Source: an uncultured Chlamydiales bacterium
GTDB taxonomy: Bacteria > Chlamydiota > Chlamydiia > Chlamydiales > Rhabdochlamydiaceae
Assembly (NCBI GenBank): GCA_963700985.1
Contig: OY969554.1
Span: 768,001 to 832,000 of the forward strand
Direction of reading: 5' to 3'
Length of the DNA: 64,000 nucleotides
A model generated the notes under the pieces. It was not told the origin of the DNA and did no database searches. It saw only the letters and a list, made by a program, of their open reading frames with translations. The translations under genes and the position numbers were made by a program. This document shows, in pieces, positions 7,715-47,402 of the stretch. How positions within the stretch are numbered: position 1 is the first letter of the stretch; every line of letters begins with the position of its first letter.

Positions 7715-7928
7715 TTTGCAAGTTCCTTAATTCAGAATTTTTAAATTGCAGAAACCTTAGCAAGATTGCAGTGCTTACGTCAAATAGATTGCACATGTTG
7801 CTGTCTTGCACAACTCACTAATCGTGTGTATTTGTGCGCGCAATTTTCTCTGCTTGTTTCGAAATCTGCAAAAAAAATAAAGTTCTGATCTGACTGTGAC
7901 AAGAAGCAAAAACAGGATATCTTCAAAG

Positions 7929-8468
7929 ATGACACTTCGATCTACAATTGCTAATCTCGCACCGATGGATGCTCAAGAAAAAGAGCAAATTGAATCTGTG
8001 TTAAGATGGATAGATTCTGATCGCGAAATATACCGCATATCAAAGCCTGCAACTCCGCCAATCCATTTAGCTGCATACTTTGTGCTGATCGATTCTGAAA
8101 AAAAACAAATCCTTTTGGCAAGACATAAAAAAGCTGCACACCTGTGGCTTCCAACCGGCGGACATGTAGAAAAAGAAGAGTCACCTCTTGAAACTGTAAT
8201 AAGAGAATGCGAAGAAGAATTGCGCATGCACGCAGAATTTCTGCAAGATGATCCTCTGTTCTTAAGCCTCACCAAAACGATCGGAGAAGCCGTTGAGCAC
8301 ACGCACATTTCGCTCTGGTATATTCTTAAAGCAAACGCTTCTTGTGATATCGACTTTGACAAAGAAGAGCTGCACGCTGTGCACTGGTTTGATTTAGATA
8401 AAATCCCCTTCGAACTTTCCTATCCAGACCTGCAGAAATTTTGCATTAAACTTGGAGCCATCTCTTAG
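7929..8468 (+). CDS. NUDIX hydrolase
   Basis: Nudix box GGHVEKEESPLETVIRECEEEL; start uncertain (GTG 7896 or ATG 7929). Confidence 0.85.
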   Translation: MTLRSTIANLAPMDAQEKEQIESVLRWIDSDREIYRISKPATPPIHLAAYFVLIDSEKKQILLARHKKAAHLWLPTGGHVEKEESPLETVIRECEEELRMHAEFLQDDPLFLSLTKTIGEAVEHTHISLWYILKANASCDIDFDKEELHAVHWFDLDKIPFELSYPDLQKFCIKLGAIS

Positions 8469-8684
8469 ATTTCTTCACAAATAGCGACCAAAGTCCATAT
8501 TGAGAAACCTTCCCCTATAACTCAATTTTATGCACAAACCTGAGTTATAGAATCATGTTCTATAACTCAAACTAAGAAAGACTTACTCTAACAGTCTGAT
8601 ATTAAGAATGTTAAGAAATAAAACCACCGCTATCACCACACAAACCATTTACTATCAGTTATTTAAATGATGATTTGGCTTAAA

Positions 8685-8746
8685 TGCGGAGAAAAAACCG
8701 ATTATTCTCCGCATTTTTGCGGAGAATATGATTGTTCCTGCGGAGA
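8685..8746. promoter_or_regulatory. Four TGCGGAGA boxes upstream of the Fic gene (putative operator)
   Basis: TGCGGAGA at 8685, 8718 and 8739; inverted TCTCCGCA at 8706. Confidence 0.55.
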
Positions 8747-8787
8747 TAACATGCTAAGATGAGAGAAACAGCTATAAAGCGCTTAAT

Positions 8788-9885
8788 ATGTACATATACG
8801 AACGTGAAAACTGGCCGGACTTTTTATGGGAGCAAGAAAAACTCTCAGATTTGCTTATTCAGCTACGTCATGAGCAGGGACGATTAATCGGTGGAATGGA
8901 ATCCATCGGCTTCCATGCGCGTGAAGAGACCATGTTACAAGTCTTAACACAAGATGTCGTTAAATCGAGCGAAATTGAAGGCGAGATTTTAGATCAAACA
9001 CAAGTGCGCTCTTCCGTTGCTAGGCATCTAGGAATGGATATTGCGGCTCTGGATGCCATAGATCGAAATATAGATGGCGTTGTTGAAATGATGCTCGATG
9101 CGACGCAAAATTTTGATCAACCGCTCACCAAAGAGAGGCTATTAAATTGGCGCGCATCCCTATTCCCAACCGGCCGCAGTGGCTTTACAAAGATTAGGAC
9201 TGGAGCGTGGCGCATAGGTCCCGTCCAGGTCGTCTCTGGTCAGATGGGCAAGGAGACAGTTCATTTCGAAGCCCCTCCTGCTGAACGAGTCGATCATGAG
9301 ATGAAGTTGTTTTTAGATTGGCTAAACACAGAGCGATCTCTTGATCTAGTTTTAAAAGCAGCTATTGCTCATCTCTGGTTCGTTACGATTCACCCCTTTG
9401 AAGATGGAAATGGCCGCATAGGACGCGCAATCGCAGACCTAATCCTAGCGCGTTCGGAAAATAGTTCACACCGTTTCTACAGCCTATCTGCGCAAATTCA
9501 AAAAGAGAGAAAACAATACTACGCCATTTTAGAGAAAACCCAAAAGGGAGCTTTAGACATTACACCCTGGATAGAGTGGTTTTTCTGTTGTCTTAGACAC
9601 GCAATCGAAGATGCATTGTCTACTCTTGACGCTATTCTACATAAGGCGCAGTTTTGGGAATCACTGGCAGAAGTTCCACTAAATGAAAGACAGCGAAAAG
9701 TTATCAATCGTTTGCTTGATGGCTTTGAGGGTAAATTAACCACATCCAAATGGGCCAAGATCACAAAGTGCTCTCAAGACACTGCCTATCGAGATATCCT
9801 CGACCTCACCAGCCTAGGAATACTCAAGAAAAATCCAGAAGGCGGCCGCAATACAAGCTATTCCCTTGTTATGAAAGAGATTTAG
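8788..9885 (+). CDS. Fic family protein (DUF4172-type N-terminus, C-terminal HTH)
   Basis: Fic motif HPFEDGNGRIGR; SSEIEGE motif; C-terminal KWAKITKCSQDTAYRDI helix-turn-helix. Confidence 0.92.
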   Translation: MYIYERENWPDFLWEQEKLSDLLIQLRHEQGRLIGGMESIGFHAREETMLQVLTQDVVKSSEIEGEILDQTQVRSSVARHLGMDIAALDAIDRNIDGVVEMMLDATQNFDQPLTKERLLNWRASLFPTGRSGFTKIRTGAWRIGPVQVVSGQMGKETVHFEAPPAERVDHEMKLFLDWLNTERSLDLVLKAAIAHLWFVTIHPFEDGNGRIGRAIADLILARSENSSHRFYSLSAQIQKERKQYYAILEKTQKGALDITPWIEWFFCCLRHAIEDALSTLDAILHKAQFWESLAEVPLNERQRKVINRLLDGFEGKLTTSKWAKITKCSQDTAYRDILDLTSLGILKKNPEGGRNTSYSLVMKEI

Positions 9886-32494: not shown

Positions 32495-34624
32495 ATGTTT
32501 ACTAAACATCATTCAAAAACAATTTCGATTGCAGGCAAAGACCTCACCTTTGAAACAGGCAAAATCGCAAGACAAGCCAACGGTGCAGTAACTCTTCGCG
32601 CTGGCGATACTGTTCTATTAGCCACAGCTTGTGCTTCTCCAAAAGCATCAGCTGACATCGACTTTTTCCCTCTACGTGTGGATTATCAGGAAAAATTTTC
32701 TGCCGCAGGTAAATCTCTCGGTGGATTTCTCAAACGCGAAGGCCGCCCTTCTGAGCGCGAGATCCTCACCTGCCGTTTAATCGACCGTCCTCTAAGACCT
32801 ATGTTCGTCGATGGCTATTATAACGAAGTACAAATCCTGGCTTACGTGCTTTCTTATGACAGTGCGCACACACCAGAGCCTCTTGCCATCTGTGCAGCTT
32901 CGGCCGCACTCGTTATCTCTGATATCCCCCTAATTAAGCCTATTGGTGCAGTGCGTGTGGGTCTTATCGACGATAATTTTATCATCAACCCAACACTCGA
33001 AGAGCAAAAGCGTTCAAAACTGGACCTGCTTTTAGCTGGTACTGACGATGCGATCCTCATGATTGAGGGATATGCTGACTTCCTCTCTGAAGAACAATTC
33101 CTGGATGCTATTGAAGAAGGCCATCAGGCTATTCAGAAAATATGCGAAGGTCTATCCGACTGGCAAAAAGAGATCGGCAAGCCTAAGCAAATGGGAGAAC
33201 TCCGCGTTGCTTCAAAAGAGCTCGAAAAAGAGATCGACCAGAGAGCTGCTAGCACGCTAATGGAAGCTTTCAAAATTAAAGACAAAATGGAACGTGACGA
33301 CAAGATCAGCGAACTTAAAGAAACTATTTTGGCTGCTCTTATGCCTGAAGGTGAAGAGCCGAAATATTCTAAAGTCGATATCATGATGTCTTTTAAAAAA
33401 ATTCACGCTCACTACCTCAGACACAAAATTGTTAAAGAGAATCGCCGTAGCGACGGAAGAACTTGCGAAGATATCCGCCAAATCAACGTTGAAACAGGCA
33501 TTTTGCCTCGCACACACGGTAGCGCCCTCTTCACTCGCGGAGAGACACAGGCTTTAGCTGTAGCAACTTTAGGCGGCGAAAGCATGGGCCAACGCTTTGA
33601 AACACTTGAAGGCGAAAGCGCTCACCGTTTCTACTTGCAATACTCTTTCCCTCCTTTCTCAGTAGGTGAAGTCGGCCGCATTGGTTCTGCCGGAAGAAGA
33701 GAAATTGGACACGGCAAACTAGCCGAGCGCGCACTGTATATGACAGTGCCAAGACACGAGAGCTTCCCTTATGTTATTCGTTTAGAATCTAACATCACAG
33801 AGTCTAACGGCTCTTCATCAATGGCTTCTGTTTGCGGATGCTGTCTTGCGCTGATGGATGCAGGCATTCCAATCCAGCGCCCGATTGCAGGGATTGCGAT
33901 GGGTCTGATTCTTGAAGAAGATGGCAAATTTGCGATTCTTTCTGACATTCTCGGGGAAGAAGACTTCCTCGGCGACATGGACTTCAAAATCGCCGGCGAT
34001 GCGCGTGGTATTACTGCTTTCCAACTCGATATCAAAATCGAAGGGATTAATAAGCAGATCATGAAAGCTGCAGTAGCTCAAGCTAAACAAGGCTTGGTAC
34101 ATATCCTGCAAAAGATGTTGGAAGTCTGCCCTAAATCGAAAGAGCATCTTTCAAACTACGCTCCACATATCGAAACCGTTCAAATCAAACCGAGCAAAAT
34201 CGGGATTGTGATTGGACCAGGTGGTAAGCAGATCCGTGCCATTGTTGAAGAAACAGGCGCAGAGATCGACATCAACGATAGCGGACTGGTTAGCATCACA
34301 GCCACCTCTAAAGAATCGATGGAAAAAGCTAAGAAGATCGTGCACGACCTCACAGCAGATGTTGAGATCGGCAAGACCTACACAGGCCGCGTCGTATCCG
34401 TGGTTGAATTTGGATGCTTCGTCGAAATCTTCCCAGGCAAGGAAGGACTTTGCCACATCTCTGAACTCGCACATGCACGCGTCCAAAACGTACGCGATAT
34501 CTGCAAAGAGGGCGACATGATGGAAGTGAAAGTTCTCGACGTTAACGACCGTGGACAGATCAAGCTCAGCCGCAAAGCTCTGCTTCCTCCCCCTGCTCGT
34601 CAAGAAGCTCCCGCCCAAAAGTAA
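32495..34624 (+). CDS. pnp: Polyribonucleotide nucleotidyltransferase
   Basis: [41 protein letters not shown] and S1 domains. Confidence 0.98.
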
Positions 34625-34645
34625 ACTCCCAAGTTACTCATAATC

Positions 34646-34683
34646 AAAAAGACTTCTTCCTTCGGGAAGAAGTCTTTTTTTTT
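34646..34683 (+). terminator. Intrinsic terminator after pnp
   Basis: aaaaagacttcttcc-ttcg-ggaagaagtc followed by a long T run. Confidence 0.85.
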
Positions 34684-34715
34684 GCATCATCATAACATCT
34701 TTTTTATCACTTACC

Positions 34716-34942
34716 CTATAGACATGTCGGGTGACTAAAGTCCCCCGCGACCCCTTGAGCTGTTCATGCTTTGATCAACATTCGCTTCGCTCATTATTGC
34801 GTCCTCGTCGCTGCGTCGTGACAAAGCACTGCCTCGCTCCTGCGGTGCAATTGCTCTTTGCCTGAAACAGCCTCGGGCTGCAACGAGCACTCCTTCCCCA
34901 AACCTACGGTTCGTGGCCCCTTCCATGTCGCGTTGCAGTATC
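34716..34942 (-). repeat. GC-rich structured arm, copy A (inverted relative to B and C)
   Basis: Begins CTATAGACATGTCGGGTGACTAAAGTCCCCCGCGACCCC; near-identical to the reverse complement of copy C over ~150 nt. Confidence 0.92.
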
Positions 34943-34970
34943 AACTTACTAATTTTTACACGAATGTATT

Positions 34971-35032
34971 TGCTCTCTTAAAAATAAATGAATGGTACTG
35001 CGAAGCGATTGGGGAAGAGCGCTAGTTGAAGC
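34971..35032 (+). repeat. Truncated, internally deleted copy of the 5' end of arm B
   Basis: tgctctcttaaaaataaat..atggtactgcga/agcgattggggaagagcgc.agttg.agc repeats 35408-35495 with a 26-nt deletion between GCGA microhomologies. Confidence 0.85.
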
Positions 35033-35098
35033 TGGAAGTAAATAACTCCAATTTACTTCATTGCAAAGAAGCCCTTGCCATCCATATCATTGGGTAAT

Positions 35099-35368
35099 AT
35101 GGGTATTTCGGTTCTAAAAACAGATGAACGAGTAGAGACAGTCTACTTCACTAGAGATTCATTAGTTGTCGATCTCAGGGATGGTCGCACTATCTCTGTT
35201 CCTTTAACTTGGTATCCCAAGTTGCTAAAAGCAGCTCAAAAACAAAGATCGAACTGGGAAATCTGCGGTGGTGGATACGGAATCCATTGGCCAGAAATTG
35301 ATGAAGATTTAAGCACCGAAGGACTATTGCGAGGATCTCCGGCTCCAAAAGTAAAAGTTCGATTGTAG
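35099..35368 (+). CDS. DUF2442 family protein (putative antitoxin), no partner gene
   Basis: L.DGRTISVPL.WYP.L..A...QR.NW.I.GGG.GIHWP.IDEDLS..GLL.G signature. Confidence 0.85.
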   Translation: MGISVLKTDERVETVYFTRDSLVVDLRDGRTISVPLTWYPKLLKAAQKQRSNWEICGGGYGIHWPEIDEDLSTEGLLRGSPAPKVKVRL

Positions 35369-35431
35369 AGACGCTTTTCTAACAATGTAATGCCATATAA
35401 ACTCATATGCTCTCTTAAAAATAAATAGATG

Positions 35432-35759
35432 GTACTGCGACGGGACGCGGAAGGGGTCCCCAGCGAAGCGATTGGGGAAGAGCGCCAGTTGCAGCCCGCG
35501 GCTGTTTCAGGCAAAGAGCAATTGCACCGCAGGAGAGCCCGGTAGGGCGTGCGGGCTGTTGAAGACATGAAAAGGTCCAGTGGACCTTTGTAATGCGAAA
35601 CAGGTGAGCAGAGCGAACCGGGCCCGGAGGGGTACTGTGTACACCCCGCCTTCGAGGACGCAATAATGAGCGAAGCGAATGCTGATCAAAGCATGAACAG
35701 CTCAAAGGGCCAGCAGGGGGCACGGACACATTTGTGCCGTGTCCCCGACATGTCTATAG
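35432..35759 (+). repeat. GC-rich structured arm, copy B (with 117-nt alternative central module)
   Basis: Shares caggcaaagagcaattgcaccgcaggag, cgaggacgcaataatgagcgaagcgaatg and cccgacatgtctatag with A and C. Confidence 0.92.
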
Positions 35760-35773
35760 ACCAAAGAAAAAAA

Positions 35774-35810
35774 TAAAAACGGAGAGGGTATTGAAAAACA
35801 CCCTCTCTTA
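35774..35810 (-). terminator. Intrinsic terminator of the autotransporter gene
   Basis: gagagggt...accctctc stem with an A-run on the left (T-run on minus strand). Confidence 0.7.
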
Positions 35811-35822
35811 TTTAAGAAGTGA

Positions 35823-38800
35823 TTAGAAGCGGTAGGAGAACTCGACGCCGGCGTTGTGGTCGGTGAAATGCTTGCCAAATTCGCCGTCGTAGAAGAGCGA
35901 CCAGATGAGCTTGTCATCCATGTGATAGCCAGTTAAAGCTGCGCCTGGGCTAAAGAGGCTGCGATTTGGTTTCATGCCTGAGACGGTAAAGGGAACATCG
36001 GTTCCGACAAACTCGGCTGTGTAATGTTTACCTTGGAAGCGAATTTCTCTTACCCAGCTGAACTTCACGTCAGGCACAAATTTCCAGGTCTTACGAGTAA
36101 AGCATCTTGCAAATCCTAATCCCAGCTCATTTCTGAGCATTTTAGATTCTTTAGAGCCCACATGCAGATCTAATGATTGCGCGCCTTTTTCGGTGAAGCT
36201 ATTTTCATGCAAGTAGATGTAATCGACTTGATCAAAGGGTCGGATTTCAATCCCTCCCAAGTTAAATAAGAAGCCTGCGCCGAGATCTGCATCGACTTCA
36301 AAACCATCGTGGGTATTTCTAGCTGTGCGATCAAAGATGGGCGAAACGAGCTTACGTGAAGCTTCATAAGAGTTATAGGCACCTAACACCGCGGTGTTAA
36401 CGTAGAAGTAATCGTTAAAATAGCCTCCGTATGCTCCACCGTAATAACTATCGATATCGCCATGCGCTCTCGATACGCTCCAGCGTACGTCGGTATGTGT
36501 GTAACTCAAGGCTGTTCCAAAGAAGAAGTTAGAGAAACAACCGAAATCCATTCCAAGAACGGCACCGCCTGATCTTGTATGGAAACCGCTTTGTCCTTGA
36601 ATACCATCTTCTGCTGAATAATCGCCGATGCCGGTTGCCCAGAGGTCTACTTTATCTTCCGGACTGCAATATTTGATGCAATCGGCGAGATAGAACTCAT
36701 CCATGCGATGCGAGATAGCTTCTCTCACTCTAGTTGTGATGTTTTCTTGAGCCAGAGCTAACCCTTTAAATATCGAAGGTTGCATCTGATTTAAAGCAGC
36801 TTTAATCTCAAGCAGAGGAAGGAAGCGAAGCTCTGCCTCGATGTTGCCTAAGTCTGTTCCAGCGGCTGGATTAATTTCATCGAGCGCCACCGCAACAGCT
36901 TGAGGATTACCCGTAAACCCTAACTCTGCCAAATCCACTTTAGTGACTGAGCCAAAGAGTAGATCGTCAGGCGTATAGATCAAAGTTGCTTTGAAGGTTG
37001 GGAATGTATCGACGACGTTCGTAAAGGTTCCAGTCAACCCACCAAGTGTGTCAATAATGGTGAAGGAAACATTTTTTGGGTAAGAGCCAGGTGTGGGTGT
37101 AATCTCAATCGTGGTATTATTCTCGATAGTGGCGGTTCCCGAGATTATAATTTCGTCCGAAGCCGTTGGGCTAACCTCAATTAAAAGTGTCGAACCCGAA
37201 CCTTGGGTGTAATTTCCATCAATATTTATCGTGCCGATAGAATTACCAGGTGACATCACACCACCGTTTCCTATCGTGACGTCTCCGACAATCGTGCCAG
37301 TTCCACCTAGAGTTCCAGTTCTGCCAAAACCTCCAACTACAGAGACCGGGCTAGTCAGTGTGTTATTTACAAGCAGCGTAGATTGGACATTGGTTTGTGC
37401 TTGTGTAACGCTTCCTGGGAGTGCAAGGGTAAGGCTTGCGGGATTAAGGCCCCCTCCACTTTGTATGTTTAAAGTACCGCTTCCCGTAATTGTTCCCGTA
37501 TATGTGCCGGACGAATGCTGAGTAAAGTTTAAGACGTTGGTGTTCGATACCAAGCTTGTGCTTGGTAAGCTAGAGGTGTCTACAGTTAAAGTTGAAGAGT
37601 TGGTGGTAGGTCCTGAATAGGTATTTGTTCCACCAACAAGATTGAGAGAGCCCGCGTCGGTCACTGTTAATCCGCCGCTTCCTCCGGTAATATTGCCTGA
37701 GAAAGTTCCGAAGCCTGAAGCATCGATGTTTAAGATGTTATTGCCCAGTACAACAGCTGAACCGTTCACGCCATTTAGATTACCGATGGAAGGACCTCCA
37801 ATCACTGTGCTTGCGCTAATATCTAATGTGCCGCTGCCGGTGTCTGCTGTGATATCCGAAGAGATCAAATTGCCATTCCCCGAAAGAGCTAGCGTTCCTG
37901 AATTAATCGTTGTTGAGCCATAGTTGTTAGCAGCTTCAAGTGTAAGCGTATTTGGTCCTATTAAAGTCAGGCCGCCACTCCCTGTAATCGCTGTTGAGAC
38001 TGTGAAGTCAGATTCCACATCGATAGTTGAAGCAGAAGTCAAGGTGATTGTACGTCCTGTTGTTACTGGATTAGTTGCCACCTGAAGAGTTCCACCAGCA
38101 AGTGTGAGGGGATTGGCTGTTAAGCCGAGGTTATTATCTGCGGAGATGCTGATTACCCCAGCATTGATGCTTGTTCCACCTGTATAGGTATTGCTTCCAC
38201 CAAGAGTTAGCGTTCCTGTTCCTTGCATAGTAAGAGATCCGCCTGTGCTGCTTATCACTCCAGAAAAAGTGGTGCTATCGGATGTGCCAACAGTGAGATC
38301 AGTTGGTCCCAATACTAGCAGACCTCCCGAAACTCCCGACAGATCACCGATCGTTTGAGGTGCGCCAGCATTTGTGAGGTCAAGCTTAGCTCCAGAGGCT
38401 GTGATGTTCACGCTGCCAGTAGAAGGGAAAGCCGTGCTTGAGTTGATCTGCAGCGTACCTGCGTTAATATTTGCGCCAGTGAAAGTGTTTGTTCCAGAAA
38501 AGATAGCGATGCCGCTGCCTTGCTTGGTGATCCCAGCTGTGCTGGTTAGATTTCCAGCAAAGGTTGTAGAAGTAGTAGCTGTACCGAAGGTTAGGGCATT
38601 TGCACCCATGGTGAGAAGAGCGCCAGAAACTCCCGAAAGATCGCCGATAGTTTGTGCTGAGCTGCTATTACTGAAATCAAGCGTAGCCCCAGAAGCAGAG
38701 ATATTCGCACTAGCTGTAGAGGGGAAAGCCGTGCTCGCATTGATCTGCAAAGTACCTGCAGAAATGTTTGCACCAGTGAAAGTATTTGTTCCAGAAAAGA

Positions 38801-41800
38801 TGGCGATGCCACTACCTTGCTTGGTGATTCCACCTGTGGCCGTGCTGCTGATATTTCCAGCAAAAGTAGTCGTTGCAGTGGCTGTACCGAAGGTCAGAGC
38901 GTTCGCCCCCATGGTGAGAAGACTGCCAGAAACTCCCGAAAGATCGCCAATGGTTTGTGCTGAGCTGCTATTGCTAAAGTCGAGCTTAGCTCCAGAAGCG
39001 GAGATATTTGCATTAGCTGTAGAGGGGAAAGCCGTGCTCGCATTGATCTGCAGCGTACCTACGTTAATAGTTGCGCCAGCGAAGCTATTTGTTCCAGATA
39101 AGATAGCAGTGCCCGTACCTTGTTTTGTAATCCCTCCCGAACCACTTATGTTTCCTGCAAAGGTTACAGGGGTAGTAGCTGTCCCGAAGGTCAGGGTATT
39201 TGTTCCTAGAGTAACAGATGTGCCTGAAACACCTGTTAAATCGCCTATTACAACTCCCCCAACAACACTGCTCCCGGAGATATCAAAGGTCGAAGTGCCA
39301 GATAAAGATACAGGAGCAGTAGAAGCAAGTGTGCCTCCTACAGAAAGAGCCAGGGTAGAAGAACCATTAAGGTTTGTACCACCAGCGTAGCTATTAGTTC
39401 CTGTTAAGATTAATTTATTGGAGCCAAAGATATTTAATACCCCACCTGTGCCAGAAATCGCTCCTGCGTAGGTATCTGTGGCTGTGGGTGTAATTAACAA
39501 TGGTACGCTTCCAAGTCTTACAAAAGTTCCAGAGGCGCCATTTAAATCGGTAATAGATGCTGAGCCACCAGTATAAGCGCTGACATCAAAGGCGGAAGTT
39601 CCATTCAAATCTAGAGGACCTGAAAAAACGGCTGAAGCTCCAGAAAGCGCAAATGTTGCGGAATTGTTAAGGGTTGCTCCAATGCCAGAACCAACACTAC
39701 CAGTCAATAAGGTCTCTCCAGTTCCACCGATTACGAGTGCCGCCCCAGTAGATCCAGAAATTGTGCCGGCAACTGTGTTTGTTGAACTGGTTTGTATGTT
39801 GAGGGTATTTGTCCCTAAAGAGACTTGGCTGCTTGCCACGCTACTCAAATTGCCGATGGTGGGGCCATCTGTTACAGTACTGCCTGTAATATCAAAAATA
39901 GACGTGGAAGAGTTTACGCTTACAGGGCTTGGTGTTGCGCCACCATTTAAATTACCCGCACCAGTTAGGGCGAGCTCGCCACCATTGATTGTAGTAGTAC
40001 CAGTGTAAGCATTCACGTTGCTAAAACTGATGGTGCCTGTGTTTTGCTTTGTAAAACCACCTGTACCGCTCATGACGCCGGCAAAAGTTGTCGAGTTTGT
40101 GGTACCAGCGGTAAGCGTATTAGCTCCCAAGGTAACAATAGAGCCCGAAGCACCGGTTAAATCGCCAATAACAGGGCTTCCAGTGCTTGCGGAGATATCG
40201 AAGGTACCATTTAAAGTCACAGCTCCTGTAGAGGCAAGTGCCCCGCCTGCTGAAAGGGCAACTGTTGCATTGACTGTCGTTCCACCTGTATAAGTATTAA
40301 CGCCTGTCAGAATGGTTTTACCCGATCCAGTTACAGTCAGTGAAGCGGTGTTTGAAGTGCCGGAAATTACCCCTGCAAAAGTATTAGTTGAACTCGTTTG
40401 TACATTAAGGTTATTCGCGCCTAACGTTACGCTGCTGTTCGCTACCCCGCTTAAGTCACCGATGGTAGGCCCGCCACTAACAGTGTCTGTTGAAATATCA
40501 AAAACAGAGGTGGAAGAGTTTACACTTACAGGACTGGGCGCAGTACCGCCATTTAAACTACCTGCACCAGTTAGAGAGAGCTGGCCACCATTGATTGTGG
40601 TCGTACCAGAGTAACCATTCTGATTGCTAAAAGTGATCGTGCCTGTGTTTTGTTTTGTAAAACCACCCGTACCGTTTATTACGCCAGAAAAGGTGGTTGA
40701 ATTTGCAGTTCCTGCAGTCAGCGTATTGGCTCCTAAGGTAATGATACCCGCGCCAGAGAGATCTCCTACTGTGGGTGCGCCATTATATACGGAGAAGTTC
40801 GTTGTTGTTCCTGTGCCTACAGTTAAGTTGCTTCCCGAAGGGAGGTTACCAGTACTAAGAAAGTTTAAAGTTCCGTTGGTGACTAATGTTCCTCCGGTAT
40901 AGTTATTGGCTGAGCTGCCTAGAGTCAAGGTGCCAATCCCACTTTGAGTCAAAGATCCAGCGCCAGTGATCGGATTAGATAGGGTATGGGTATCTCCGCC
41001 TGCTTGCTGAGCAAATATTCCACCACCTGTTCCTAAAGTGACATTGCGGGCAGAGGTAGTCGTGGCAGCGGTTGTAAGCAGAGTGGATCCATTTTGAATC
41101 GTGAGGGGTGCCCCGGCTGACCCTAAACTCCCATCGCCTGCGATAGATAAGGTTCCTGTGGTTGTGGCTGTACCAATGGTTGTGCCGCCTGAATAGGTAT
41201 TAGAAGTGTTCGTGAGGCTTAGAGTCCCAGGACCGCTTTGGACAAGAAGTCCGCTAGTTGTCGCATTGGCAATAAGGCCGCTGATGGTGTGAGTTACAGC
41301 TGATGACGCCTGGGAGAATGAGCCGCCCCCGCCAGTATTAATACCTAAAGTGAAATTGCGAGAGGAGGATGTTGTTGCCTGAGCATTCAGTGTAGCTCCG
41401 CCGGTAATTGCGACAGCTCCTAAGCCCAAGCTGCTATCGGCGCCGATCGATAGAGTTCCTCCGGTAATTGAGGTCCCGCCAGAATAGATGTTAGGTGTAG
41501 AAAAGGAGGTATTCGTGAGGCTCAAAATACCAGGACCGCTTTGCGTAAGAGAGCCGGGTGTGGAAGCATCGGAAATTATGCCACTGAGCGTATGCGTAAT
41601 GGCTGATGATGATTGGGAAAATACGCCGCCTCCACCAGTGCTTGGTCCTAAATCTATAGGGCGAGCAGATAACGTAGTGCTGGCTGCATTCACAGCTGCC
41701 CCATTGTTAATCGTAAGGGGTCCCCCTACTGCACCTAAAGGATCTAGCGAACTTGTGCCTGTGATTGACAGTGTCCCTGCATTGACGGTCGTTCCGCCTG

Positions 41801-44048
41801 AATAGCTATTAGAGGTATTCGTAAGGCTAAAAGTGCCCGTTCCATCTTTTGTTAAAGTTCCACCACCCGTATCAGAGATCACGCCAGAAAATGTGGAGAC
41901 CGGATTTGTTAGGATCAATCCCTTCGCACTACCTAAAGTCACAAATCCAGAACCAGAGAGATCGACGATACTCGCTGTCGAGCTTGAAATACCGCTAATA
42001 TCAAATGTTCCAATTGCATTTACAAGAGAACTAGTTGCGATAGTTCCTGAACCGGAAAGGCTAAGTATGTTGCCACTGTTGACTGTTGTCTGGCCCGTAT
42101 AAGTATTAACTTCCGTCAAAATCAAAGGATCTGTGCCAGAGGAGATGAGTGCTCCTGCGCCAGAAATGACCGAGTTTACCGTAAAAGGTCCGCTGGTCAG
42201 ACTAAAAGTACCAGTGCCAGCTAAGGTGATAGCTCTCGTCGTTGATTCTGCGTTTGCGGTAGTTGGTGCAAGAGTGCCCCCATTAAAACTTAATGGGTTT
42301 GCCGCAGCTCCTAAGTTGCTATCTGCACTGTATGTGAGCGTTCCACCATTCATCGACGTTGTGCCTGTATACGAGTTCGTACCCGATAGTGTTAACGTTC
42401 CCGTTCCGTTCATCGTTAGACCGCCGGTAGCGGTGCTGCCGCCACCAGTGCCATTATCACTAGCGATGTTTGAGGAAAGGGTAAAGTTGCCGGCTTGACT
42501 AAAGGTAAGTTGAGAGCTCGACATCATAAAAATATCAACACCTAAGGCTACTCCATTCGAGCCTACAGTACCGTTGCCACTGAGTGCGCCGCCTGTCCCA
42601 GCAGTGAGACTGCTTCCCGTAATAGAGGTGACACCGCTTCCGACAGAAGCGCTGTCCTGTATAATCAGAGTTCCTCCGCCGGTAGATCCTCCGTAGAGAA
42701 AAATAGCTCCGCCAAGCGCGGCTCCGCCTCCGCCTCCGCTACCAGCTGTAGCACCAGCGATTACACCGCCTCCACTGCCTCCAAAACCAGCGGTGTCGAC
42801 GCCTCCCGATGCTGCTGTGCTCGTTGTCGTGCGTACAAATGCTCCCCCACCTCCTGCTCCAAAACCAGAATTGGCTCCCGCACCACCACTTGACGCATTT
42901 GAGGAGGCTCCTCCTCCTCCGCCGCCAAAGCCGCCTGCGCCTGGTGAATTTGGAGTTCCATTATTACTATTTGATGCTCCGGAGCCTCCTCCGGCAAAGC
43001 CTCCTGATCCAGCACCACCGGGACCACTACTTGTGCTTGACCCTCCGCTTCCACCACCACCAAAAAGTCCTCCGGATCCACCTCCTGCGCCACCACTAGA
43101 AGTTGAGCTGCCACCTCCTCCGCCTCCCTGGAAGCTAGCACCGCCTTGACCGCCGCCCAAAGTACCCAAAGATCCGCCGCCTCCTGCTCCTCCTGGTTTT
43201 CCTCCTGTTCCTGTGCTCGAACCTCCACCTCCTCCACCAGCGCCAGATGAGCCTCCGCCATTCCCATTAGGAGAGCCGCCTGGAATATTGCCACCACCAC
43301 CACCGCCTCCCCCAAATGATGGATTTCCACCACCGCCAGCTCCGTTACCTAACATTCCTCCGCCACCACTTCCTCCAACGCTACCATTACCTCCATTTCC
43401 AAATAAGCCACCACCAGCTCCTCCAGATGGCACGCTAGAATCTACCCCATTTCCTCCATTACCTCCCATACCAGCACCACCGCCACCTGATATGTTAGTA
43501 CCGCCAGCACCTCCCGTGCCCCCTATCGCTTGTGCATTCGCAATTGTAACGCCATTCAGGGTAACAATGGCTCCAGGTCCCACAAAAAGAGCGCCTCCAG
43601 CAGCCAAACCGCCACCACCGCCGCCGCCGCCAGTTCCCCCATTTCCTCCTTTGGCGATCATGCTTTGTAAAGTCATGTTGTTAATGGTTACATTACCTGA
43701 ATAGGCATAGAAGCCTCGAAAAGTAGATGAGCCAGTGCCGGCAGTGCTGCCATTGAAGCTTGTTCCTCCCGTTACACCATTAATAGTCAAACTATTGGCG
43801 TTGCCGATATTGAAGACGGGTAAGTTAAAGGGGGTCTGTGTTGTGCCCCAGGTTAGCGCACTAAACGGGATAGAGATGATATTTCCTGTGGGATCTGGAG
43901 TTGTATTGATTGAATTAATCGCAGCGCGCAATCCACCTGCAAGCTCGATATCGGCATTGGTTAAGGTAACAGTGGTCACTCCCCATATTGGGTTGGAAAT
44001 GGAAAGTAGGTAAAGGGACCCTAGGATGGATAAGGTTTTCTTGTTCAT
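35823..44048 (-). CDS. Large autotransporter/adhesin (~2740 aa): signal peptide, Gly-rich region, passenger-associated beta-strand repeats, C-terminal beta-barrel
   Basis: MNKKTLSILGSLYLL signal; many G.GTLTLSG.N.Y.G.T.I..GTL repeats; SPGNSIG junction; barrel ending GVEFSYRF. Confidence 0.93.
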   Translation of the reverse strand: MNKKTLSILGSLYLLSISNPIWGVTTVTLTNADIELAGGLRAAINSINTTPDPTGNIISIPFSALTWGTTQTPFNLPVFNIGNANSLTINGVTGGTSFNGSTAGTGSSTFRGFYAYSGNVTINNMTLQSMIAKGGNGGTGGGGGGGGLAAGGALFVGPGAIVTLNGVTIANAQAIGGTGGAGGTNISGGGGAGMGGNGGNGVDSSVPSGGAGGGLFGNGGNGSVGGSGGGGMLGNGAGGGGNPSFGGGGGGGGNIPGGSPNGNGGGSSGAGGGGGGSSTGTGGKPGGAGGGGSLGTLGGGQGGASFQGGGGGGSSTSSGGAGGGSGGLFGGGGSGGSSTSSGPGGAGSGGFAGGGSGASNSNNGTPNSPGAGGFGGGGGGASSNASSGGAGANSGFGAGGGGAFVRTTTSTAASGGVDTAGFGGSGGGVIAGATAGSGGGGGAALGGAIFLYGGSTGGGTLIIQDSASVGSGVTSITGSSLTAGTGGALSGNGTVGSNGVALGVDIFMMSSSQLTFSQAGNFTLSSNIASDNGTGGGSTATGGLTMNGTGTLTLSGTNSYTGTTSMNGGTLTYSADSNLGAAANPLSFNGGTLAPTTANAESTTRAITLAGTGTFSLTSGPFTVNSVISGAGALISSGTDPLILTEVNTYTGQTTVNSGNILSLSGSGTIATSSLVNAIGTFDISGISSSTASIVDLSGSGFVTLGSAKGLILTNPVSTFSGVISDTGGGTLTKDGTGTFSLTNTSNSYSGGTTVNAGTLSITGTSSLDPLGAVGGPLTINNGAAVNAASTTLSARPIDLGPSTGGGGVFSQSSSAITHTLSGIISDASTPGSLTQSGPGILSLTNTSFSTPNIYSGGTSITGGTLSIGADSSLGLGAVAITGGATLNAQATTSSSRNFTLGINTGGGGSFSQASSAVTHTISGLIANATTSGLLVQSGPGTLSLTNTSNTYSGGTTIGTATTTGTLSIAGDGSLGSAGAPLTIQNGSTLLTTAATTTSARNVTLGTGGGIFAQQAGGDTHTLSNPITGAGSLTQSGIGTLTLGSSANNYTGGTLVTNGTLNFLSTGNLPSGSNLTVGTGTTTNFSVYNGAPTVGDLSGAGIITLGANTLTAGTANSTTFSGVINGTGGFTKQNTGTITFSNQNGYSGTTTINGGQLSLTGAGSLNGGTAPSPVSVNSSTSVFDISTDTVSGGPTIGDLSGVANSSVTLGANNLNVQTSSTNTFAGVISGTSNTASLTVTGSGKTILTGVNTYTGGTTVNATVALSAGGALASTGAVTLNGTFDISASTGSPVIGDLTGASGSIVTLGANTLTAGTTNSTTFAGVMSGTGGFTKQNTGTISFSNVNAYTGTTTINGGELALTGAGNLNGGATPSPVSVNSSTSIFDITGSTVTDGPTIGNLSSVASSQVSLGTNTLNIQTSSTNTVAGTISGSTGAALVIGGTGETLLTGSVGSGIGATLNNSATFALSGASAVFSGPLDLNGTSAFDVSAYTGGSASITDLNGASGTFVRLGSVPLLITPTATDTYAGAISGTGGVLNIFGSNKLILTGTNSYAGGTNLNGSSTLALSVGGTLASTAPVSLSGTSTFDISGSSVVGGVVIGDLTGVSGTSVTLGTNTLTFGTATTPVTFAGNISGSGGITKQGTGTAILSGTNSFAGATINVGTLQINASTAFPSTANANISASGAKLDFSNSSSAQTIGDLSGVSGSLLTMGANALTFGTATATTTFAGNISSTATGGITKQGSGIAIFSGTNTFTGANISAGTLQINASTAFPSTASANISASGATLDFSNSSSAQTIGDLSGVSGALLTMGANALTFGTATTSTTFAGNLTSTAGITKQGSGIAIFSGTNTFTGANINAGTLQINSSTAFPSTGSVNITASGAKLDLTNAGAPQTIGDLSGVSGGLLVLGPTDLTVGTSDSTTFSGVISSTGGSLTMQGTGTLTLGGSNTYTGGTSINAGVISISADNNLGLTANPLTLAGGTLQVATNPVTTGRTITLTSASTIDVESDFTVSTAITGSGGLTLIGPNTLTLEAANNYGSTTINSGTLALSGNGNLISSDITADTGSGTLDISASTVIGGPSIGNLNGVNGSAVVLGNNILNIDASGFGTFSGNITGGSGGLTVTDAGSLNLVGGTNTYSGPTTNSSTLTVDTSSLPSTSLVSNTNVLNFTQHSSGTYTGTITGSGTLNIQSGGGLNPASLTLALPGSVTQAQTNVQSTLLVNNTLTSPVSVVGGFGRTGTLGGTGTIVGDVTIGNGGVMSPGNSIGTINIDGNYTQGSGSTLLIEVSPTASDEIIISGTATIENNTTIEITPTPGSYPKNVSFTIIDTLGGLTGTFTNVVDTFPTFKATLIYTPDDLLFGSVTKVDLAELGFTGNPQAVAVALDEINPAAGTDLGNIEAELRFLPLLEIKAALNQMQPSIFKGLALAQENITTRVREAISHRMDEFYLADCIKYCSPEDKVDLWATGIGDYSAEDGIQGQSGFHTRSGGAVLGMDFGCFSNFFFGTALSYTHTDVRWSVSRAHGDIDSYYGGAYGGYFNDYFYVNTAVLGAYNSYEASRKLVSPIFDRTARNTHDGFEVDADLGAGFLFNLGGIEIRPFDQVDYIYLHENSFTEKGAQSLDLHVGSKESKMLRNELGLGFARCFTRKTWKFVPDVKFSWVREIRFQGKHYTAEFVGTDVPFTVSGMKPNRSLFSPGAALTGYHMDDKLIWSLFYDGEFGKHFTDHNAGVEFSYRF

Positions 44049-44346
44049 AAAGGCCAAATTCCTTTGCATATTAAAAAATGCAGTAGAAACTATTAGGATT
44101 TTATTATCAAAAAAAAATGCACCATCAAGCGATGTTTTTTTCCAGATGAGCGATTACGCTATGCAAAGAATACAATCAGATATACTTGGCAAACATGTTT
44201 GGCAGCTCTATTTGGAGTTACTATGACTTTCAGAAATTGAATTAGACCTCCCTCCTAACACTCATTGGCGTATTGAACTTACATTCTCATTTTCGATAGC
44301 AGCTTCACCAATGGCACTTTTAAAACACTACGGATTTGCCCATAAA

Positions 44347-44571
44347 ACTGCGATGGAACGCGGAAGGGGTCCCCAGCGAAGCGTTGGGGGAAGAGCGCCA
44401 ATTGCAGCCCACGACTGCTTCAGGCAAAGAGCAATTGCACCGCAGGAGCGAGGCAGTGCTTTGTCACGACGCAGCGACGAGGACGCGATAATGAGCGAAG
44501 CGAATGTTGATCGAAGCATGAACAGCTCAAGTGGGGTCGCGGGGGACTTTAGTCACCCGACATGTCTATAG
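44347..44571 (+). repeat. GC-rich structured arm, copy C
   Basis: actgcgatggaacgcggaagg...gggactttagtcacccgacatgtctatag; 5' part resembles B, 3' part resembles A. Confidence 0.92.
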
Positions 44572-44600
44572 ACGAAAACAAAAAGAAAGAATGGCGAAAT

Positions 44601-44636
44601 AAAAAAGAGAGGGTGTTTTTTAACACCCTCTCTTTT
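44601..44636 (-). terminator. Intrinsic terminator of ftsH
   Basis: aaaagagagggtgtt/aacaccctctctttt perfect stem flanked by A/T runs. Confidence 0.85.
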
Positions 44637-44657
44637 GTGTGTGTAGACTCTCAGCGC

Positions 44658-47402
44658 TTAGATTTGCTGGAGAGTAGGATTGTCCGAAGAGGGCTGAATG
44701 CCGCCGCGGGTTGGAGCAGGTGGAGGAGGAGGAACTTTGCGTTGCAAGTCTTCTGTTGCTTTAACGCGTTTTTTCTTCTTCTCTGCATCCCACTTCTCAT
44801 TCATGATCTCAAGCACGTCCTCGCGATCTAAAGTTTCAAACTCGATGAGCATATCTGTCATGAGCTGCACTTTATCGCGGTTGGCATTTACAATTTCGAC
44901 GGCTTTAGCGTGCGCTTCATCCAATAGCTTCTTGACTTCTTCATCGATGAACTTAGCTGTCGATTCAGAATAGTTTTTATCGTGATAAGAAGGCGCACCA
45001 AGGTATTGCCCATTTTCAGAGCGTTCGTCATAAGCCACTGTTCCAAGAACATCGCTCATACCCCATTCGCAGACCATGCTGCGCACAAGGCGCGTAGCTT
45101 GCGAAATATCCATCTGAGCACCAGAAGAAATATCACCTACAAAGATCTCTTCAGCCACACGACCGCCCATAAGAACAGCGAGCTGATCTAAGATCTCTTT
45201 GCGCCAGTAGCTAAGGCGATTCTTTTTCGGCATAAAATGTGTAGCCCCTAAGGACATTCCACGTGGGATAATAGTTACTTTGTCTACAGGGTCAGCGTGT
45301 TTAACCACGAGTGCCACCACCGCGTGACCAGACTCATGGAAAGCTGTGGTCTTGAGCTCGTTTACATCGATCTCAAGGCTACGGCGCTCTTTACCATAAC
45401 GCACTTTATCGCACGCTTCGGCTGCATCTTGGGCAGTTACAGCACTTCGGCCGCGTCTTGCTGCTAAAAGAGCTGCTTCGTTTAAAATATTGGCTAGATC
45501 GGCACCGGAAGAACCTGGTGTGTTTCTAGCGATATACATGAGGTCGACTGAAGGATCTAATTTGATTTTTTTAGCGTGGACTTTCAGAATCTCATAGCGC
45601 CCTTTAATATCTGGAAGATCGAGCACTACACGTCGATCAAAACGACCTGGACGAAGCAGCGCTTTGTCCAACACGTCCGGACGGTTTGTAGCGGCAATCA
45701 GAATAATGCCTTCGGTCGTGTCAAAGCCATCCATCTCAACGAGTAGTTGGTTCAATGTCTGCTCACGCTCATCATGACCGCCGCCAATGCCAGCGCCACG
45801 ATGACGACCCACCGCATCGATCTCATCCATGAAGATGATGCAAGGCGCATTCTTTTTAGCCTCTGAGAAAAGATCACGTACGCGGCTTGCGCCCACACCC
45901 ACGAACATCTCTACGAAATCCGAACCGGAGATCGAGAAGAATGGACGATCAGCCTCACCTGCTACAGCTTTGGCGATTAAGGTTTTACCAGTTCCGGGAG
46001 CTCCGATGCACAACACGCCTTTTGGGATACGTGCACCTAGCGCGGTAAATTTAGAAGGATCTTTTAAGAAGTCGACGATCTCTTGAAGCTCTTCTTTGGC
46101 TTCATCACAACCTGCTACATCTTTAAAGGTGATCTTGTTGCGTTCTTTGGTCAACAGGCGTGCAGGTGACTTACCAAAAGTCATCGCACCTGAACCCGCA
46201 CCCTTCATCTGGCGTGAGAATCCAAAGTAGATCAGCAGCACAATCACAAGCAGCGGCAGAATCGGTAATAGATAGCCGAGGTAGTTAGGAGCGGGCTCTT
46301 CGCTTTTAAATGTTCTTTCCAGAACCGTATTGCGTGGTTGATCAGGAGCTTTAAATACTGCGCCTTTATTCGTGTTGAAATTTTCCCACTCTTGTTTAGC
46401 TTGCAAGAACCAGTGATTATATAGTTCTGGATCTTGTTTTTCTAAAGCACGTGTAGACAATTCTTGGTTATTGAAGAACCAGATTACGCTAGAAACTTGC
46501 TGTCTGGCTTTTTCGAGTTGTGCATCGTTTTTCTCAAGTTCATCAGCAACTTGAGCGTAGCTTTCGATTTCCGTCTTATAATTGCGCACACTGCGTAAGT
46601 CATTTAAGCGAATCCCTTGATCTTCTTGATCGAGGTCAGTGACAACCTTAGATAAAGAGCCAAGAGCTGTGCCATAAGCCGCAAGCGCTGTTTTCTGCTG
46701 GCTTGAATCTGTAATTGAAGCGGAAACCTTTTGCTCTAAGTCACGTAAGTTTTGTTTGATCGTCTCACTGCCAATTCCCAGGTTTGGTGAACGGAAGCCT
46801 TGAATTAGAATTAAAAGGTCTTTGCCAAAGGCATTCAGCTCAGCTGGGCTGCTTGAAGCAGATAGAGCAGCATAACGCTTCTCGAGATCTTTAAGGTTAA
46901 CGACATTTCGATCTGATAAAGATTTGATTACAACCGAGTTTGCGTTATCTGTTGTGTCATAGATAGGATCTACAACTTTATACCCAGTTTTGGGAATTGC
47001 GATTCCACTGAGGTGAAGGAACCAGTCGGCAGCATCTTTAACATTTTGACGTAAAGAGTTTATGCCTTGCTCTAAGCTCGTCTTTTTCTCAGTAAATTCA
47101 TGATTTTGATAGAGCAGATCTAAATAACGAAAGCGCGCTTTAGCTTCGTCTGAAAGTCTGTCTTTAAATTTACCGCTAAAAGTGACGAGGTTATCGTTGA
47201 GGGCAGTCTTACGGCTATCTTCTTTCTGGAGTAGATCCAAGTTGACGAGATGTTCAGTCTGGTGACTGAATGCAACCTTGGCTGTTTTCTCAGAAGAGAG
47301 ATTTTGAATTGAGAAAACAGCTAAGACGGTCGCAACTAAGATGATGAAAAAGCCTCCTGGGAGACCTTTCTTGGAATCTGGTTTTTTATTATCGTTAGCC
47401 AT
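44658..47402 (-). CDS. ftsH: ATP-dependent zinc metalloprotease FtsH (long periplasmic domain, chlamydial type)
   Basis: [48 protein letters not shown]. Confidence 0.98.

Follow-up and report, generated by a model that had tools for sequence, protein, structure and literature searches.

Between the genes pnp and ftsH of an uncultured Chlamydiales bacterium of the Rhabdochlamydiaceae (assembly GCA_963700985.1, contig OY969554.1) lies a 9.9-kb segment bracketed by long inverted repeats, which raises the question of whether these repeats are the two ends of a single mobile element. The segment occupies positions 34716-44571 of the window, i.e., the whole stretch of 64,000 nucleotides (contig positions 768,001 to 832,000, forward strand) that was analyzed; coordinates are window positions unless marked as genome positions, and other genomes are coded G001 and so on. 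A sequence-only reading had proposed a nested, non-autonomous composite element mobilized in trans, or an invertible segment, delimited by a left arm A and a right arm C, with an internal arm B and with an orphan antitoxin gene and a large autotransporter gene as cargo. Our results suggest that A and C are most likely not two ends of one 9.9-kb element. Rather than one mobile element, the segment is probably a variable intergenic hotspot, occupied by an autotransporter gene specific to the lineage and by two copies, separate from each other, of a non-coding foldback repeat, referred to here as E1 and E2.

The observation behind the question is sound. The outer 39 nt of the segment (34716-34754 and 44533-44571) are 100% complementary, as had been claimed, and the inverted ends A and C enclose passenger genes without a transposase inside. 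Arm A (34716-34944; the repeats are listed without a strand) starts with CTATAGACATGTCGGG and is recovered by an nhmmer arm profile with an E-value of 8e-50; arm C, a right arm, spans 44347-44567 and is followed by ATAG at 44568-44571. Further inward the two arms agree at 88% across 167 nt, or at 89.6% across 211 nt according to blastn, so the likeness over about 150 nt stands but the term "near-identical" was too strong and the arms are better called similar. Identity between A and C amounts to 82.8% (202 of 244 aligned columns), compared with 77.0% for A and B and 73.9% for B and C. Together, A (as its reverse complement), B and C form a subfamily of their own, marked for instance by a common 17-nt insertion, and are only 56-65% identical to most other copies of the repeat. 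Arm A is colinear with C; B has a mosaic make-up, with an extra module of ~117 nt (about 35536-35652) and a terminal hairpin differing from that of A and C; two copies that have this module are 71-74% identical to B. That A and C resemble a matched pair is explained by two circumstances: the left arm is the reverse complement of the right arm in every family member, and one local subfamily includes both E1 and E2. The description of the arms as structured was not borne out for single arms: taken by itself, neither A nor C shows significant structure (z-scores of -1.0 and -1.8, respectively), whereas whole foldback copies reach z-scores of -13 to -21 (RNA parameters, 30 mononucleotide shuffles) and whole family copies reach minimum free energies of -279 to -302 kcal/mol. 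RNAcofold energies of A with C (-407 kcal/mol) and of A with B (-386 kcal/mol) were uninformative.

The partner of A was identified from the sequence that adjoins it. Arm A is followed by a loop of 51 nt (34945-34995) and by the first 37 nt of a right arm (34996-35032), a fourth, partial arm piece that breaks off at 35032. After an insert of 372 bp (35033-35404) the loop end and the right-arm start recur at 35405-35495 (direct repeats D20 and D12, 88 and 94% alike), directly ahead of arm B; duplicated loop end and arm B together occupy 35405-35759 and end with CCCGACATGTCTATAG. Because the loop and right-arm start adjoin A and are duplicated ahead of B, B is the partner of A. E1 (34716-35759) is one foldback with its right arm split by the 372-bp fragment, which is flanked by 65-91 nt of duplicated E1 sequence. 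Arm B closes a unit of 1,044 bp with a terminal motif like that of the other arms, and the nested A-B unit of ~1.04 kb recognized by the sequence-only reading is real. It has a parallel in the congener G003, where the arms of a 1,333-bp copy (L059) are intact (a block of 86 nt at 92%, plus others) and enclose a 239-aa HNH-like open reading frame (ORF); the copy sits at the centre of a perfect 18-20-bp palindrome. This ORF matches Pfam HNH_2 below the cut-off (E 4.5e-4) and was rejected as the enzyme of the family; as it was found only in G003, with one weak match in G004, among 31 genomes, it is cargo.

The insert of E1 is unique in the genome and carries, on the plus strand, a gene of the DUF2442 family (ORF 35075-35368, probable start ATG at 35099, Pfam E 8e-24). 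Homologues occur in G017 (82% identity) and G001 (77%). In G001 a 78-aa DUF4160-like ORF, recognized by eye, precedes and overlaps the DUF2442 homologue, and there are no arms nearby. DUF4160/DUF2442 pairs are putative toxin-antitoxin pairs. Since the DUF4160-like partner of the G001 homologue is missing here, with none found within the window, the gene is an orphan, as had been described.

E2 was delimited with the help of metagenomic data. Three soil-metagenome runs from one study contain parts of the stretch as short-read contigs, and in one of them (X1) a contig of 457 nt with a depth of 4.8 matches 43786-44189 (6 differences in 404 nt) and then continues with 44568-44620. At the joint between 44189 and 44568 there are neither shared nor intervening letters (404 + 53 = 457). 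The right edge of the 378 nt skipped in this contig falls exactly at the repeat terminus (...GTCT), and the skipped sequence begins at 44190 with a degenerate copy of the family end motif. The depth of X1 over 44186-44596 is 0.46 as against about 4-5 on either side. An X1 contig over 35006-35440, inside E1, shows 0 differences from the window. A near-identical strain therefore appears to have E1 and the upstream region of the autotransporter gene without E2, a presence/absence difference documented by a single low-depth contig. E2 (44190-44567), delimited by this joint, consists of 157 unique nt (44190-44346), for which no match was found elsewhere in the genome nor in E1, and of arm C (arm profile E 6e-48). 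What is absent in X1 is the C unit alone, so that ends and cargo do not appear to be gained or lost jointly; the 9.9-kb unit was not found elsewhere in the genome, and the partner of A adjoins A. The claim of a single cargo element with A and C as its ends was therefore not supported.

We then asked what kind of sequence the arms are. [quoted passage not shown] An arm profile search finds 15 arms in the genome, in agreement with the view of the arms as non-coding, transposase-free repeats and showing that they make up a dispersed family. The usual copy is a compact left and right hairpin of about 300-520 bp, copy sizes across the family range from 44 to 1,333 bp, and the arms are modular, with exchangeable parts, differing terminal hairpins and the optional ~117-nt module. 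Compact foldbacks of a left and a right arm are found at four other genome loci (320 kb, 1000 kb, 1194 kb, and 1580 kb), and the two arms lie close together in 11 of 12 arm-bearing copies profiled from relatives. Facing end pairs are located at genome positions 320125-320598 (474 bp), 858582-858661 (80 bp), 1193912-1194425 (514 bp), 1215805-1215872 (68 bp), 1580593-1580896 (304 bp), and about 1000086-1000597; copies that are only partial lie at 721, 1733, and 2058 kb. The sequence-only reading had named mostly solitary, randomly oriented arms, together with relatives carrying the autotransporter here without arms, as the finding that would speak against it. The arms turned out to be mostly paired, neither mostly solitary nor random, yet the near-identical strain does have the autotransporter upstream region without C.

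The family extends across the genus, and its number of copies varies widely among relatives. The 14-mer TATAGACATGTCGG, with at most one mismatch, occurs 14 times in this genome and 53 times in G004; in each of 149 other genomes from the order, all outside the genus, it is counted 0-2 times, a level like that of the reversed-pattern control. Counts of the 13-mer ATAGACATGTCGG, again with at most one mismatch, are 74 for G004, 68 for G001, 27 for G002, 15 for G003, and 1 for G005, so that 14 ends here compare with 1-74 in five congeners. One 516-bp copy of G004 used as a blast query gave 96 matches in G004 and 55 in G001, corresponding to fewer places because both strands of a foldback match. 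Lone, unpartnered arms without a transposase were seen in three metagenome contigs of related organisms; they come from a metagenome scan with the 14-mer that returned 119 stretches, of which 80 were read and 3 of these 80 had real arms. A full-text literature search yielded no account of repeats like these from chlamydiae; the genome paper on Waddlia notes many repeats of more than 200 bp, left undescribed in the part of that paper concerned. A search of Rfam with 34000-45500 (E up to 1) returned only a match to the L20 leader at 24.5 bits, far below threshold, and for a full repeat copy (L049) nothing reached the gathering score.

Other multi-copy repeats inspected in the genome included no insertion sequence. 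A 1.85-kb pair at 99.3% identity proved to be 16S rRNA, and a 1.4-kb triplet proved to be the gene of a 734-aa protein family. The 16S region is duplicated at genome positions 856658-858509 and 1825382-1823531, and the 80-bp mini copy of the foldback family (858582-858661, L095) lies ~280 nt upstream of one of the two 16S rRNA genes. The gene of the 734-aa protein, which is of unknown family, has three copies (93-94%; genome 1576826-1578244, 2059733-2061150, and 2062793-2064053), and additional, partial ones are located near 1806 and 2064 kb.

In each of the 8 relatives with a contig extending past pnp, the left boundary gene pnp (here 32495-34624, plus strand; polynucleotide phosphorylase with Pfam RNase_PH, PNPase, KH, and S1) and the right boundary gene ftsH (here 44658-47402, minus strand; Pfam AAA and Peptidase_M41) are convergent neighbours; G002 was excluded from the count as its contig ends just after pnp. 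The gap between the two genes measures 529 bp in G009, 1,360 bp in G014, 1,401 bp in G004, 2,080 bp in G001, 3,116 bp in G003, 3,434 bp in G013, 4,293 bp in G018, and 4,747 bp in G007. No match was obtained by blastn of seven of these gaps (all but G003) against the window segment and this genome, and the G003 locus matches the window segment only at the 3' end of ftsH. Neither the autotransporter gene nor a DUF2442 gene was found in the gap at the loci of the 8 relatives, which carry orphan ORFs, a VWA protein, two SBP_bac_5 proteins, and an EamA transporter. An empty site for the whole unit was not found, the gaps of relatives containing other genes, and the genome has no second copy of the 9.9-kb segment.

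Two side observations concern the neighbourhood of pnp. G014 has two autotransporter genes just upstream of its pnp (G014:C11:185821-193157); large surface-protein genes are thus clustered near this neighbourhood in several lineages, at least two. In G003, the homologue of pnp (L087, G003:C2:580000-596000, about 7728-9828) is read in several frames with ~10 stop codons and is either a pseudogene or the product of an error-rich assembly.

The main gene of the segment lies on the minus strand at 35823-44069 and encodes a protein of 2,748 aa with an N-terminal signal-like segment, a Gly-rich region, 13 PATR repeats, 11 TIGR02601 repeats, and an autotransporter beta-domain (PF03797, E 1e-43) on its last 399 aa. 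These repeats and the beta-domain make the label autotransporter correct, and a C-terminal beta-barrel with a repetitive passenger is the architecture of a type Va autotransporter. No recombinase domain was detected by Pfam in the scanned ORFs of 34716-44571, which agrees with the earlier description of a cargo with a large autotransporter and no recombinase. Of 18 genomes of the family, 16 have autotransporters related to the C-terminal 799 aa (E up to 1e-30), as against none of 12 genomes from other families; paralogues in this genome reach 51 and 47% in the barrel region. Chlam_PMP, a very short model of 19 positions, gave no match in the genome, and the autotransporter used as a query across genome contigs gave two distant, uninformative matches. 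The genome does have a match to the Hc1 histone-like family, in keeping with a chlamydial origin.

G003 has the closest homologues of the autotransporter, a pair of inverted copies (79-80% in the barrel) that lie at other loci (L085, G003:C2:1922000-1936000; L086, G003:C2:1960500-1974500). They are 88% alike and bound a segment of ~31 kb that is inverted relative to this genome (1482-1525 kb), likely as a result of repeat-mediated inversion. In the 14 kb around each copy no repeat ends were found, and the matching sites in this genome hold other small genes. At the DNA level, the autotransporter is 66-76% identical to the G003 copies, and neighbouring housekeeping DNA is 69-78% identical; nothing marks the gene as a recent import, since its divergence is like that of the flanking housekeeping DNA. 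At one of the matching sites (genome 1517791-1518517) we noted two small adjacent ORFs that look toxin-antitoxin-like by eye. A further observation concerns the passenger repeats (36900-40000), over which X1 contigs of a co-occurring strain show 1.3-4.8% differences (16 in 1,201 nt and 25 in 525 nt), and the X1 pieces over 35006-35440 and 41569-41916 are identical to the window; the pattern reflects either uneven divergence or a mixture of strains.

Terminator-like hairpins lie close to both repeats. The hairpin of pnp (34646-34679, plus strand) has a 15-bp stem followed by a T run. On the minus strand, the terminator hairpin behind the autotransporter gene (termX', 35782-35814; terminator-like hairpin at 35807-35782) and the ftsH terminator hairpin (termX, 44603-44636; copy at 44600-44632) represent one hairpin sequence that occurs nowhere else in the genome. 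Arms B and C each end 22-35 nt from one of these two hairpins, and E1 and E2 lie 23-37 nt from terminator-like hairpins. G003 also has two hairpin copies (30 nt, 93%, E 1e-9; L087 4612-4644 and 7684-7716), and because these bracket different cargo the hairpin pair at this site seems older than the repeats and the autotransporter, although such an order is not proven. Duplication of the terminator hairpin was considered as a general feature of the gap and dismissed, as it is clear only here and in G003 and a similarity in G001 is not significant. Targeting of terminators as a rule of the family was likewise dismissed, with only 2 of 10 genome copies within 60 nt of a terminator-like site, both at this locus.

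Regarding the mode of spread, we searched five transposase families in 5-6 genomes of the genus. DDE_3 was found in none of 6 genomes and DDE_Tnp_1_2 in none of 5; the one DDE_Tnp_1 gene, in G002, lacks the family ends, and the rve genes of G002 and G003 lack family ends and arms. Y1_Tnp (HUH) occurs only in G001, with two genes that are flanked by other palindromic repeats, and G004, which is rich in the family, has no Y1 gene. Accordingly, neither a related autonomous element with the family ends nor an arm copy adjoining a transposase, which the sequence-only reading had suggested looking for, was found in this set. An AT beside 15 of 15 copies is uninformative about the target, since AT was part of the pattern used to find the copies and the count is circular. 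No direct repeat was found in the flanks of 10 copies picked for one deviating end, in which the bases outside the core are subfamily-specific (e.g., GTCTCT in 5 of 5 G001 copies), and no target duplication was seen at the E2-less joint of the X1 contig. The lack of a visible duplication would fit an HUH-type spread, as in REPINs (hairpin-forming doublets of repetitive extragenic palindromic, REP, sequences), better than a cut-and-paste DDE enzyme. An IS630-type mechanism with a CTAG target and TA duplication was rejected, as the bases in question vary in congeners and no DDE_3 gene occurs in the 6 genomes. As a separate observation, one of the two Y1 genes (HUH, RAYT-like) of G001 (L101, G001:C4:149198-152461) is flanked by a second palindromic family, unrelated to the arms, with units like GGAGTGCGGCG...CGCCGCACTCC, which is also present in the pnp-ftsH gaps of G001 (L021) and G004 (L022); together with the Y1 gene it looks like a REP/RAYT system. 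The other Y1 gene (L100, G001:C1:322386-325715) is flanked by yet another palindromic repeat.

Several points weigh against our view of a hotspot with two independent repeat copies. The E2-less form is known from one low-depth contig of one run, aligned at 90% likeness, and may represent a deletion instead of an empty site. The left end of E2 is only a degenerate match to the family end, and its 157 nt have no source in the genome; for E1, no empty site was found. A and C are the best-matched pair, with 39 perfect nt and a higher identity than A and B (82.8 vs. 77.0%), and their terminal variant is absent from every other copy in the genome, as would also be the case if they were the ends of a single unit or if the copying had been very recent. 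The proximity of B and C to the hairpin pair could reflect a block duplication tied to the arrival of the autotransporter. Finally, in the absence of a visible target duplication, and with the search for a cognate transposase negative, we infer the mobility of the family only from its distribution and one polymorphism.

These points were weighed against four other explanations. A single foldback could have been split open, A and C having once been the arms of a compact repeat beside the ftsH terminator, into whose loop the rest was inserted stepwise or at once. This would account for the colinearity of A and C, with their common 39-nt perfect end, internal module, and deletions relative to other copies, and for the mosaic B, whose module and terminal hairpin are known from other copies; that a foldback loop can hold a gene is seen in the G003 copy L059. 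Yet the loop and right-arm start after A (34945-35032), duplicated before B, make B the partner of A, the unit missing in X1 starts at 44190, 157 nt outside arm C and not at the inner edge of the arm, and these 157 nt match nothing in E1, which renders the explanation unlikely. The composite model, according to which a 9.9-kb non-autonomous element bounded by A and C was moved into the gap as a unit by a transposase acting in trans, similar to a mobile insertion cassette (MIC), draws on the perfect 39-nt inverted ends around nearly the whole gap, on the absence of a homologue of the segment at the site in 8 relatives, and on the fact that transposase-free cassettes and repeat-flanked composites are already known (PMC5444012, PMC4133298). 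We regard it as quite improbable in view of the absence of C by itself in a near-identical strain that keeps the autotransporter upstream region, the lack of a second copy and of a unit-wise empty site, the housekeeping-like divergence of the autotransporter from its G003 homologues (66-76 vs. 69-78%), and the lack of a transposase with these ends in 5-6 genomes of the genus.

It is very unlikely that recombination between A and C flips the 9.8-kb autotransporter segment, since no invertase or recombinase gene was found among the scanned ORFs in or beside the segment and the promoter region would flip along with the gene, so that no expression switch is apparent from the sequence; this is despite 211 nt of inverted homology at 89.6% with a perfect 39-nt core, and despite the ~31-kb inverted segment between inverted autotransporter copies in G003, which indicates that such inversions occur in the genus. 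We give just as little credence to the idea that the arms are not mobile DNA and are retained by selection as cis-acting hairpins (terminator, insulator, or mRNA-stabilizing) for the convergent genes. Roles of this kind are described for bacterial MITEs and REPs in the relevant section of PMC3733652, whole copies fold very stably, and E1 and E2 lie 23-37 nt from terminator-like hairpins; however, the two copies at this locus are the only ones of 10 in the genome within 60 nt of a terminator-like site, the number of ends ranges from 1 to 74 in congeners, and relatives do not have such arms at this site.

In the hotspot reading that we favour, E1 would be a foldback whose right arm was split by the DUF2442 fragment, with duplication of the flanking element sequence, and E2 would be a second, half-sized copy between the autotransporter upstream region and the ftsH terminator. 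The repeats would have spread in trans through an enzyme encoded elsewhere, and may now act mainly as recombination substrates and hairpin-forming spacers. A more far-reaching version, which is speculative and rather unlikely, is that foldbacks take a small selfish-type gene into their loop and carry it as a transposase-free cassette, that they move without target duplication by means of a type of enzyme so far unconnected with elements whose arms are this long, and that paired copies could occasionally move larger genes such as the autotransporter. Two examples are known that would suit it, namely DUF2442 in E1 and the HNH-like ORF in the 1,333-bp G003 copy with intact ends.

The case illustrates that a conspicuous long inverted pair around cargo can stem from two independent copies of one palindromic family, and it cautions against calling composite elements from a single genome. 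Moreover, the direct and inverted repeat copies around the gene of a 2,748-aa surface protein are ready substrates for deletion, duplication, and inversion, and such rearrangements could matter for surface variation. The significance is modest, in that a repeat family has been newly delineated in its ends, sizes, modular arms, and copy numbers, one that seems to be undescribed for this genus, together with a cautionary case, and not a new kind of system.

Among known systems, repeats such as Correia/NEMIS, RUP, and ERIC are short, non-coding, dispersed, and hairpin-forming and have terminal inverted repeats. The family described here is likewise short, non-coding, dispersed, and mostly intergenic, with terminal inverted repeats, variable copy number, and hairpins. 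In the part of PMC3733652 that deals with them, Correia/NEMIS of Neisseria, RUP of Streptococcus pneumoniae, and ERIC are listed as bacterial MITEs, and it is to these and to the REPIN/TIR (terminal inverted repeat) families treated there that our family is closest in form. Unlike MITEs, it has arms of about 230 nt each that build near-perfect foldbacks of 300-520 bp from exchangeable hairpin modules, it shows no visible target duplication, and no parent insertion sequence was found in the genomes searched. With REPINs and the REP/TIR families of RAYT and TIRYT, as characterized in the same part of PMC3733652, it shares inverted palindromic doublets that form one hairpin, the lack of target duplication, single and dimeric forms, and persistence without a matching transposase gene in the same genome. 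It differs from them in its much longer units and in the absence of a GTAG or CGTC tag; in addition, the Y1 genes of G001 are flanked by different repeats and the family-rich G004 has no Y1 gene.

MIC231 of Bacillus is a mobile insertion cassette. Like MICs (PMC5444012, PMC4133298), E1 and the G003 copy L059 are bounded by inverted repeats and carry a passenger gene without a transposase, and the composite model resembles the repeat-flanked mosaic non-autonomous transposons of the same sources. Unlike MICs, the cargo-bearing copies show no sign of having moved, and the 9.9-kb span from A to C does not behave as one unit. In eukaryotic Foldback (FB) transposons, the inverted arms are very long, the internal repeats are modular, and cargo is occasionally present between the arms. 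With its long inverted arms, internal modules, and occasional cargo, the chlamydial family resembles FB transposons in form only.

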